Below, one piece after another: positions 60,713 to 63,376 of a DNA stretch of 64,000 bases (its first letter is position 1; the number at the start of each line of letters is the position of its first letter). The stretch spans positions 3,040,001 through 3,104,000 of the forward strand of contig CM000155.2 in assembly GCA_000004695.1 (NCBI GenBank). Direction: 5' to 3'. Both the position numbers and the translations under genes were made by a program. The notes under the pieces are model-generated. The model saw only the letters and a program-made list of their open reading frames with translations, did not search any database and was not told the origin of the DNA. Origin of the DNA: Dictyostelium discoideum. Taxonomy: Eukaryota.

Positions 60713-61281
60713 ATGTTAGTTGCGCCAATTACTTCAATGTATGCAGGAATTTTAGGTATTTATTACCTTAAATTATTATTTGACGTTATTAAGCAAAGAA
60801 GAAAGACAATGACATCTGTTGGTGATGGCTCACAAATATTAATTAAAAAGATAGTTGATGCTGGTAAAAGTGGAAAAACTGAAAATTTTTCAAATATTGA
60901 TTACCTTTTATATGATGATCTTTGTAAGTGTGATTAATAATAATAATATAAAAAAAAAAAAAAAAAAAAAATTAAAAATTATAATTAATAAATAAATAAA
61001 TAATTTTAGTGAAAACTATTAGATCACATGGAAATTTTGGAGAATTTGTGCCATTTGCATTATTATTATCATTAATTTGTGAAATAAATGGAATTCCAGG
61101 TATATTATTAAATGGAGTACTATTTACATTCACAGTTTCAAGATTTGCTCATGTTTCTGGTCTTCATGCTCAATATTCCTTGGGCTCTGGTCGTAAAATT
61201 GGTGTTTTATTAACTATCTTCACACTTTTTTCATTCTCAATTATCTGTATTTTTTATCCAATTTCAAAATACATTTCATAA
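60713..61281 (+). CDS. MAPEG-family microsomal glutathione S-transferase-like protein, tandem copy 1
   Basis: Two exons: 60713..60923 and 61010..61281, with donor GTAAGT and acceptor TTAG (phase 1). The TM-rich protein carries the MAPEG core RSHGNFGEFVPFALLLSLICEINGIP...SRFAHVSGLH (compare MGST1 RRAHLNDLENIVPFLGIGLLYSL...). Confidence 0.75.
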
Positions 61282-61874
61282 ATTGATTAACAAACAATAA
61301 AAAATATTCACCTTTCATCACACAAATGAATTAAATAATTATTTTTATTTAATTAATCCTTTCTATTCAATTGCAAACATATTTTTTTTTTCATTTTTTT
61401 TTTTTTTTTTTCATTTCCCCATTTTTTTTTTTATTTTTAAACTCCCATAATTAAAAATAAATTTTTTTTTTTTTTAATCTGCTTATGTCATGTCAAGCAG
61501 TAAATAATATTATGTTTATGTCATTACTTTATTTTCATTCAATCCAGTTTAGATTATTCTGACTCAATATTTATATTTTAGTGAAAGGTTATACACAATT
61601 TTGAGGTGTTACACGAGATATTGTTTTTTAATTTCGATGACTTGTAAAAAAAATTATTTTTATTTTTATTTTTTTTTAAAAATAAAAAAAAAAAAAAATA
61701 TAAATAGACTCATTAAAAAAAAAAAAAAAAAAAAATATAATTTTAAAGTATATTTATATTTATTTAGATAGATAAATATTAGGAAAAAAAAAAATAAAAA
61801 ATAAAAAAAATAAAAATAAAAATAAATAAATCAAAAAATAATAAAAAATAATAATAAATAAATTAAAAATAAAA

Positions 61875-62486
61875 ATGTCAATTTTAGCACCAATTACTTC
61901 AACCTATGCAGGAATTCTAGGTATTTATTACCTTAAATTAACATTTGATATTGGCACAGAAAGAAGAAAAGCAAAAACTTCTATTGGTGATGGTTCACAA
62001 CAATTAATTCAAAAGATAGTTGATGCTGGTAAAAGTGGAAAAACTGAAAATTTTTCAAAAATTGATTACCTTTCATATGATGATCTTTGTAAGTATCATT
62101 AATATAAATAAATAAAAAAAAAAAATAAAAAAAAATAAAAAAATAAAACCAAACCAAAACAAAATAAAATAAAATATTAACAATAATAAATAAATAATTT
62201 AAATTTAGTGAGATCAATTAGAGCACATGGAAATTTTGCAGAATTTGTACCATTAGCATTATTATTTTCATTAATTTGTGAAATTAATGGAATTTCAAGT
62301 AAATTATTAACTGGAATACTATTTACATTAACAGTTTCAAGATTTTCTCATGCAACAGGACTAAGAGCAAGTAATGTTGGACGTAAAATTGGTGTCTCTC
62401 TTACACTACTTTCAATTTTAATCCTTTCAATTCTTTCTATTTATATTCCAAATAAAGATACTATTTTTAATTTATTTAAAAATTAA
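61875..62486 (+). CDS. MAPEG-family MGST-like protein, tandem copy 2
   Basis: Two exons: 61875..62088 and 62209..62486. The intron position and phase are the same as copy 1 (…YDDL|GTAAGT…TTAG|TG…). It is about 65% identical to copy 1 (MSILAPITSTYAGILGIYYLKLTFDIGTERRKAKTSIGDGSQ…RAHGNFAEFVPLALLFSLICEINGIS…). Confidence 0.75.
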
Positions 62487-62748
62487 AATTAAAATTAAAA
62501 TTAAAAATAAAATAAACTAATAAAAAATTAATAATGACGACTATAACTTTTTTTTTTTTTTTTGAATTCCAAATTTGGAAATCGATGTTGTCAAGCCCAC
62601 AGATATTTTTTATTTTTTAAAAAAAAAAAAAAAAAAAAATTATTAATTAAAAATAAAAAATTCAAAAAAATCAACTTCATCACTTTTTTTTTTTTTTTTT
62701 TTTTTTTTCAATTAACTTTAATTAACCAATATTAAAAATAATAATAAA

Positions 62749-62986
62749 ATGACACTTGTTGTACCAATTACATCAACCTATGCAGGTATTTTAGGATTAT
62801 ACTATTTAATTCTTTCAATAAAAGCAGCAGGAGAACGTTTCAAATCTAGAATTGCAATTGGTGATGGTACCAATCATTTAGTTAGAAAAATTATTACAGC
62901 ATGTAAAACTGGCAATATTGAAGAAGTTGGTAAAATTGATCACCATGCTTATGATAACCTTTGTAAGTAGCAGTAGTAGTATTAAA

Positions 62987-63026
<40 letters not shown>

Positions 63027-63376
63027 AATAATCCTAATTTTTTTATTTATTTTTTTTTTTAAAAAATTATTTCTTTAAATTTTAAGTGGTTTCAATTAGA
63101 TCTCAAGGTAATTTTGGAGAATATGCAATTTTTATTTTATTATTTTCATTAATTTGTGAACTTAATGGAGTACCAGGTAAAATTTTAAATGGTTTACTTT
63201 TAGCATTTACCATTTCAAGATTCGCTCATGTCTCTGGTCTTCATGCTAAATATTCTAATGGTTTTGGTCGTAAAATTGGTGTTTTTTTAACTTTCATCTC
63301 ACTTTTATCACTCTCAGTTATCTGTTTATATTATCCAAATCAAGATACAATTCTTAATTTAATTAACAAACAATAA
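62749..63376 (+). CDS. MAPEG-family MGST-like protein, tandem copy 3
   Basis: Two exons: 62749..62962 and 63087..63376, with the same intron position (…YDNL|GTAAGT…TAAG|TG…). The protein reads MTLVVPITSTYAGILGLYYLILSIKAAGERFKSRIAIGDGTNHLVRKI…RSQGNFGEYAIFILLFSLICELNGVP…SRFAHVSGLH. Confidence 0.75.

Follow-up and report, generated by a model that had tools for sequence, protein, structure and literature searches.

Three short two-exon genes follow one another in the same orientation on chromosome 6 of Dictyostelium discoideum AX4 and raise two connected questions: to which branch of the MAPEG membrane proteins do their products belong, and how did the array arise? The AT-rich stretch of DNA analyzed here (the window) comprises 64,000 nucleotides of contig CM000155.2 (assembly GCA_000004695.1, positions 3,040,001 to 3,104,000 of the forward strand). 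The genes, designated G1, G2, and G3, are all on the + strand and fill its positions 60713-63376 exactly. An initial annotation had described them as a simple triplication of a gene resembling microsomal glutathione S-transferase (GST). Our results instead point to small four-helix MAPEG membrane proteins with Escherichia coli YecN as their nearest characterized relative, which belong to a long-loop branch, likely act as glutathione transferases or peroxidases, and are encoded in an array undergoing birth-and-death turnover. We put the probability of this reading at roughly 70%.

The array comprises three annotated genes with a common intron

G1 (DDB_G0293592) consists of exon 1 at 60713..60923 (codons 1-70 plus the first base of codon 71), an 86-nt intron at 60924..61009 (GTAAGT...TTTTAG, phase 1, guanine-plus-cytosine [GC] content of 5.8%), and exon 2 at 61010..61281, including the stop codon at 61279-61281. 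In G2 (DDB_G0293594), exons at 61875..62088 and 62209..62486 flank a 120-nt intron at 62089..62208 (GTAAGT...ATTTAG), and in G3 (DDB_G0293714), exons at 62749..62962 and 63087..63376 flank a 124-nt intron at 62963..63086 (GTAAGT...TTTAAG); both of these introns are in phase 1 as well, and both second exons include the stop codon. The spliced products of 160, 163, and 167 amino acids are residue-for-residue identical to Q54BJ9, Q54BJ8, and Q54BJ7, respectively, which are already annotated in AX4 as hypothetical proteins. GC content was 25-31% in exons, 6-9% in introns, and 11-15% in intergenic spacers.

These models bore out the proposed tandem of two-exon paralogues as well as the position, phase, and GTAAGT donor of the single intron, which in each gene splits a Leu codon between T and TG following YD(D/N)L. 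The spacing, which had been given as a uniform ~1.15 kb, turned out to be 1162 nt (G1-G2) and 874 nt (G2-G3) from start to start. Protein identities of 57% (G1/G3) and 53% (G2/G3) agreed with the expected 50-65%, but G1 and G2 exceeded this range at 68%. Likewise, the loop is divergent as suggested, with an insertion in G3 that differs from the other two, but the N-termini are not, since all three proteins have a conserved PITSxYAGILGxYYL segment; the remaining divergent zones are the end of transmembrane helix 1 (TM1), TM4, and the C-terminus. Both exon blocks emerged as three-copy direct repeats in a repeat search, and no fourth copy was found elsewhere within the window. At the nucleotide level, exon 1 of G1 was 86% identical to that of G2 versus 64% to that of G3.

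Profile comparisons place the proteins nearest to YecN

All three translations matched Pfam MAPEG (PF01124) over nearly its full length (profile positions 3-128/129), scoring 68.3 bits (G1, E = 9e-19), 74.1 bits (G2, E = 1.5e-20), and 74.6 bits (G3, E = 1e-20) with a gathering cut-off of 23.4, which confirmed the proposed family membership. NCBIfam gave no match for the three proteins. A profile built from Dictyostelium sequences only retrieved no MAPEG protein among solved structures (PDB) at E<=10. When aligned by hhalign with the authentic YecN sequence from the MG1655 record, the same profile yielded a probability of 97.3% and an E value of 2.6e-11, with 26% identity over 119 columns and one 26-residue gap in YecN opposite G2 residues 42-67. 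The corresponding comparison with human MGST3 gave an E value of 0.029 and a probability of 1.7% over 47 columns, which can serve as a lead only. After inclusion of bacterial relatives (51 Dictyostelium and YecN-like sequences), the broadened profile reached MGST2 (E = 1e-5), mPGES-1 (2e-4), and leukotriene C4 (LTC4) synthase (5e-4).

YecN, also known as "E. coli MGST," belongs to MAPEG subgroup III, and its published residue numbers R45, N49, E52, and P55 agree with the sequence fetched here (PMC13605077). These residues correspond to R76, N80, E83, and P86 of G2, within a layout found in both YecN and G1-G3 (GDG...IRxHGNxxEYxP...E.NG...GRxxH...R). In contrast to YecN, the Dictyostelium genes form a eukaryotic, spliced tandem family, and their products are ~30 residues longer, with 26 extra residues in loop 1 for which a helix is predicted; G3 in addition lacks the proline of TM2. 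Subgroup III members are typically bacterial proteins of ~125-135 amino acids with a short TM1-TM2 loop, whereas G1-G3 are eukaryotic and intron containing and have 160-167 residues; by profile scores they are nonetheless closer to the YecN type than to subgroups I, II, and IV. We regard them as a eukaryotic sister group or offshoot of subgroup III rather than as typical members.

Human MGST2 and LTC4 synthase (subgroup I) and mPGES-1 and MGST1 (subgroup IV) have the four-helix MAPEG plan in common with G1-G3, along with the same site residues: Rx3Nx2E in TM2, Arg and His (Tyr) in TM3, and, where TM4 begins, the catalytic Arg. They were reached solely via the profile that included bacterial sequences, and identity in structural alignments was 12-17%. 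MGST3-type proteins (subgroup II; animals, plants, and fungi) resemble G1-G3 in being eukaryotic and in their RAHxN..E motif. The earlier label, which likened the genes to microsomal GST1/2/3 or to LTC4 synthase/FLAP, is thus too specific: such likeness is detectable at the superfamily level alone, via the broadened profile, and the Dictyostelium-only profile favors YecN. The array is an unstudied but annotated tandem family of YecN-type MAPEG genes, ordinary in kind.

A retained glutathione site suggests a transferase or peroxidase

An AlphaFold2 model of G2 (predicted local distance difference test score of 93.8) showed TM helices at residues 6-33, 65-97, 102-124, and 127-162 and a loop helix at 41-54, in agreement with the four TM helices and ~130-170 residues that define MAPEG proteins. 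For a bundle of such simplicity, fold searches gave no useful information. Weak matches between the loop insertion and designed armadillo-repeat proteins (PDB, E = 0.09-0.9) were judged to reflect chance resemblance between amphipathic helices.

In the set of 51 Dictyostelium and YecN-like sequences, R76, N80, E83, R116, and R130 (G2 numbering) were invariant, and R30, H119, and P86 were kept in at least 90%. The Rx3Nx2E motif of TM2 (R75/N79/E82 in G1, R76/N80/E83 in G2 and G3) was invariant in 9/9 Dictyostelium sequences and in 51/51 Dictyostelium and YecN-like sequences. The equivalents of the catalytic Arg that opens TM4 (R104 of MGST2/LTC4 synthase, R126 of mPGES-1), namely R132 in G1, R130 in G2, and R133 in G3, were invariant too. 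Profile alignments placed the conserved residues on RAQQNCVEF, GRHLY, and KKR(104)ITG of MGST2 and on GRVAH(113) and R126 of mPGES-1. G1, G2, and G3 thus all retain the residues of the glutathione site, i.e., Rx3Nx2E, two arginines, and a histidine. The published glutathione-site signature of MAPEG combines Rx3Nx2E with a proline in TM2 (PMC13605077); this kink proline is present in G1 (P85), G2 (P86), and G4, a fourth paralogue found in related genomes (see below), and is absent from all G3 orthologues.

From this conservation, a glutathione-dependent membrane transferase or peroxidase appears to be the most likely function of the three proteins. Prokaryotic MAPEGs produced as recombinant proteins conjugate 1-chloro-2,4-dinitrobenzene (CDNB) (Bresell 2005, as cited in PMC6798054 and PMC13605077). 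In Synechocystis, Sll1147 confers protection from tert-butyl hydroperoxide, heat, and cold (PMC6798054). Both observations favor a trimeric, glutathione-dependent enzyme. Since an in vivo phenotype has been described for this prokaryotic MAPEG, we adopted Sll1147 (SynMGST) as the physiological model for G1-G3; unlike YecN, it groups with subgroup I (PMC13605077). In such a scenario, the G1-G3 products would form (homo)trimers that act as membrane transferases or lipid-hydroperoxide peroxidases and would guard membranes against electrophiles and peroxidized lipids.

Long-loop relatives occur in dictyostelids and zoosporic fungi

An exhaustive profile search over 1.84 billion protein representatives yielded 2312 relatives. 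The top-ranking ones were 150-180 amino acids long and were matched as one stretch, and therefore possess the long loop. They came from the dictyostelids Tieghemostelium lacteum, D. purpureum, Polysphondylium violaceum, Heterostelium album, and Cavenderia fasciculata, from zoosporic fungi (Cladochytrium, Rozella, Allomyces, Catenaria, Nowakowskiella, Batrachochytrium, Rhizophlyctis, and Gonapodya), and from one MMETSP protist transcript. Next in the ranking were bacterial YecN-like proteins of ~130 amino acids, matched in two stretches (E = 1e-21 to 1e-13). Common to the long-loop orthologues are the loop insertion and a (K)Y..L..(A)IRxHxNF context. In a protein tree, dictyostelid sequences stood apart from the fungal ones, which grouped with 66% bootstrap support. 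An ancient transfer from a bacterium to a eukaryote at the base of the long-loop clade is possible.

The search also returned a 164-amino-acid protein of the long-loop eukaryote type (P0083 / P0273) that is labeled 'MAG: MAPEG family protein [archaeon]'. It may represent a misbinned eukaryotic contig or a genuine archaeal member.

The older array is G2-G3-G4

Syntenic loci of six related genomes were compared after their gene models had been rebuilt. D. firmibasis and "D. cf. discoideum" ACTFIZ both showed the order G2-G3-G4, which is interrupted between G3 and G4 by one gene in D. citrinum and by two genes in D. dimigraforme. "D. cf. discoideum" ACTFIY carries G1-G2-G3-G4, and in AX4, G1-G2-G3 is followed by a gene fragment that runs past the window end. 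Array size, for which variation between strains or species had been considered, hence differs between close relatives of D. discoideum. The older order is G2-G3-G4, and G1 was added in the discoideum lineage.

The phase-1 intron is common to all G1-G4 genes, and the protein tree joined G4 with the D. purpureum orthologue (79% bootstrap) and G2 with G3 (99%). The intron therefore predates the duplications, as had been argued from the three AX4 copies, and this now extends to the fourth paralogue. D. purpureum possesses one G4-like gene at a nonsyntenic site (L003 10001-10678), next to hAT and DDE transposase genes and not to the NF-X1-type gene that flanks the arrays; it has introns after codons 9 and 28 and none at the YxxL position. 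G3 of D. firmibasis (L004 ~9094-9810) contains a further phase-1 intron, located after YAG (codon 13), which is unique among G1-G4 genes, and the public annotation of this species merges G3 with G2 into a 313-amino-acid product.

In ACTFIZ, G1 is a relic that consists of colinear fragments: its start, its 3' end, and a segment spanning the intron and the 5' part of exon 2 have been deleted. G2 of the same genome (L006 10001-10225) has an in-frame stop at the codon of the invariant Tyr68 (IDYLS*DDL), which the public annotation sidesteps with a 146-amino-acid model; the stop reflects either a genuine null allele or a fault in the assembly. Taken together, the gains and losses across these genomes suggest birth-and-death turnover rather than demonstrated subfunctionalization.

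G1 combines a G2-type 5' part with a G3-type 3' part

In sliding windows of nucleotide identity, G1 was 87-98% identical to G2 over codon columns 6-115, while over columns 116-158 it was 82-87% identical to G3 and 47-60% identical to G2, with the crossover at columns 111-120. Neighbor-joining trees of the two segments placed the 5' part of G1 in the G2 clade (100% bootstrap) and its 3' part in the G3 clade (91%), together with the G3 genes of the discoideum complex (87.5%). We also scored diagnostic sites, at which the G2 and the G3 orthologue sets are each fixed for a different state. Up to 61105, 25/32 sites in G1 were of G2 type, and from 61154 onwards, 10/12 were of G3 type; these ten form one unbroken run, from which the last two sites depart. 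Exon 2 of G1 is thus G2-like through 61105 and G3-like starting at 61154, and both diagnostic sites and sliding windows confine the switch to 61106..61153 (+ strand). Downstream of the G1 stop codon, the former coding 3' end (61282..61300, + strand) can still be aligned to the 3' end of G3 up to a G3-type stop (AACAAACAATAA); a length difference of 1 nt relative to G3 and the earlier stop have removed the last 7 residues.

As judged by these comparisons, G1 was formed by recombination between G2 and G3, in the discoideum lineage and later than its separation from D. citrinum. The date follows from synonymous divergence, which was 0.17-0.21 between G1 and its parent segments and 0.34-0.36 between AX4 and D. 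citrinum; the G1-parent values also lie above most of those between AX4 and ACTFIY. The simple triplication with later divergence that had been proposed thus gave way to a more composite origin. Exon 1, the intron position, and the initial third of exon 2 are of G2 type, as is probably the promoter-proximal DNA; the remainder of exon 2 is of G3 type.

A single unequal crossover was rejected as the source of G1: it would leave a G3(5')/G2(3') hybrid between G2 and G3, whereas G1 is a G2(5')/G3(3') hybrid located upstream of G2. Because of this order and polarity, two steps are needed, i.e., either a duplication followed by gene conversion or a duplication of the G2-G3 pair followed by an internal deletion; the 3' flanks are too AT rich and diverged to tell these routes apart. 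An assembly artifact is unlikely, since the mosaic was seen both in AX4 and in the independent ACTFIY assembly.

Alternative explanations and significance

Several points weigh against the reading of G1-G3 as functional, YecN-type glutathione enzymes. The gene identifiers and UniProt accessions of G1-G3 appeared in no searchable paper, and literature on Dictyostelium combined with MAPEG or microsomal GST contained nothing concerning the three genes. Every G3 orthologue lacks the TM2 proline and has Ile or Val in its place (EYAIF/EYTIF instead of EFVP). The 7 C-terminal residues of G1 have been lost, and the gene evolved rapidly, with ratios of nonsynonymous to synonymous substitution rates (dN/dS) of 0.67 and 1.26 relative to its parent segments, although counts are small. 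Between AX4 and ACTFIY, G3 accumulated 3 synonymous and 13 nonsynonymous changes (recent dN/dS of ~1; binomial P of 0.0009 against an omega of 0.2), and its function may therefore have shifted or relaxed. It is conceivable, if unlikely, that YecN-type proteins have a structural, transport, or regulatory role outside glutathione chemistry and keep Rx3Nx2E for another anionic ligand, which would fit the obscure physiology of YecN and the lack of a functional model for the G1-G3 proteins in NCBIfam. For the bacterial subgroup, conjugation of CDNB in vitro is the one activity that has been reported (PMC6798054, PMC13605077). Against such a role, all glutathione-contacting residues of solved MAPEGs are conserved across the Dictyostelium and YecN-like proteins. 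The same conservation bears on an eicosanoid-like role in lipid mediator synthesis, as LTC4 synthase, FLAP, or prostaglandin E synthase, for which membership in the same Pfam superfamily and the broad-profile matches to MGST2, mPGES-1, and LTC4 synthase could be adduced: FLAP is a glutathione-independent MAPEG member (PMC13605077), whereas G1-G3 retain the full site. Moreover, the profile built from Dictyostelium alone found YecN and none of the solved MAPEGs, and the closest relatives of G1-G3 are those of bacteria and zoosporic fungi. As far as we are aware, neither these groups nor Dictyostelium possess the 5-lipoxygenase/leukotriene A4 pathway, and we regard this role as very improbable.

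The changes in G1 and G3 listed above, together with the G1 relic and the G2 stop codon of ACTFIZ, could also mean that the array is only partly functional, with G1 and possibly G3 on the way to becoming pseudogenes and effectively no functional triplication. However, AX4, ACTFIY, and three additional assemblies of D. discoideum all have an intact open reading frame and splice sites for G1, and its dN/dS between AX4 and ACTFIY was 0.20. Between species, orthologues of G2, G3, and G4 gave dN/dS values of 0.15-0.42, with G3 at 0.24-0.42 across the longer distances, and the catalytic-site residues are all kept in both G1 and G3. Partial function of this kind is hence doubtful. As to the ultimate source of the family, a first word-index search had returned discoideum-complex species only, followed by bacterial-type YecN proteins at ~33% identity, as might be expected if a gene had recently been transferred from bacteria into the discoideum group and had then gained an intron and duplicated. 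This was rejected and has next to nothing in its favor after the exhaustive search, which recovered long-loop orthologues from every major group of dictyostelids as well as from zoosporic fungi, and in view of the protein tree, in which dictyostelid sequences are separate from fungal ones.

Overall, we lean somewhat toward the broader view that the "bacterial" subgroup of YecN/E. coli MGST has an unrecognized branch in dictyostelids and zoosporic fungi, characterized by a helical 26-residue insertion in loop 1, and that in the D. discoideum lineage this branch undergoes birth-and-death evolution, including a recombinant G1 that is selectively maintained and was lost in a sibling lineage. The eukaryotic long-loop branch and the recent chimeric paralogue are modestly new; current views are not overturned, as the genes were annotated already as hypothetical proteins and the MAPEG family is well known. 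Dictyostelium is a genetically tractable phagocyte that faces bacterial and oxidative stress, and its compact YecN-type array offers an easy knockout target for the in vivo role of an uncharacterized branch. In addition, the birth of G1 and its decay in a sibling lineage provide a datable example of how a gene can arise by recombination between tandem paralogues.

Sequences flanking the array

A 23-nt motif, TTCTGACTCAAAATTTATATTTT, lies at 60514..60536 (+ strand), 199 nt ahead of the G1 start codon, and is a copy of a motif upstream of G2 (61557-61579). It was found upstream of both genes in AX4 and ACTFIY, which suggests that the duplication that formed G1 carried promoter-proximal DNA along. 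Upstream of G2, the motif and a conserved noncoding block together occupy 61557..61623 (+ strand). The block, GGTTATACACAATTTTGAGGTGTTACACGAGATATTG (61587-61623), is situated ~250-290 nt upstream of G2 in an otherwise unalignable AT-rich spacer and is mismatched to AX4 at 2 positions in ACTFIY, at 4 in ACTFIZ, and at 8 in D. citrinum. Its conservation makes it a candidate cis-regulatory or promoter element.

Upstream of the arrays, and on the other strand, lies a conserved zinc-finger gene of the NF-X1 type. In the window, this gene occupies 55576-60096 (- strand) as a 1506-amino-acid open reading frame rich in Cys/His repeats, to which the NF-X1 label was given by reading of the sequence; it contains very long homopolymers, including a run of >50 Asn, as well as poly-Thr and poly-Gln. 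The same gene, encoding 1446-1491 amino acids, is the upstream neighbor of the array in every related genome.

Downstream of G3, AX4 contains an open reading frame fragment, VSFALGQLINAENSNLNITYCNWMNINTLGGAISVVDTNVTIENSTFD..., at window positions ~63840-64000 (+ strand), which continues past the window end; in ACTFIY, G4 directly follows G3 without such an intervening fragment. One D. discoideum annotation joins the fragment to G3 in a 373-amino-acid product (P0060). Homologous Logan contigs (L007-L009) carry in-frame stops, and the fragment may therefore be a gene remnant. Logan contigs were also considered as transcript evidence for G3 and were dismissed, as the 64-amino-acid P0064 belongs to the downstream gene and had been clustered via the fused model P0060. 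Long poly(A) and poly(T) runs were present on the flanks of every gene of the array, and a (TTTA)n microsatellite of ~14 units was located downstream of G3 at window positions 63587-63650.

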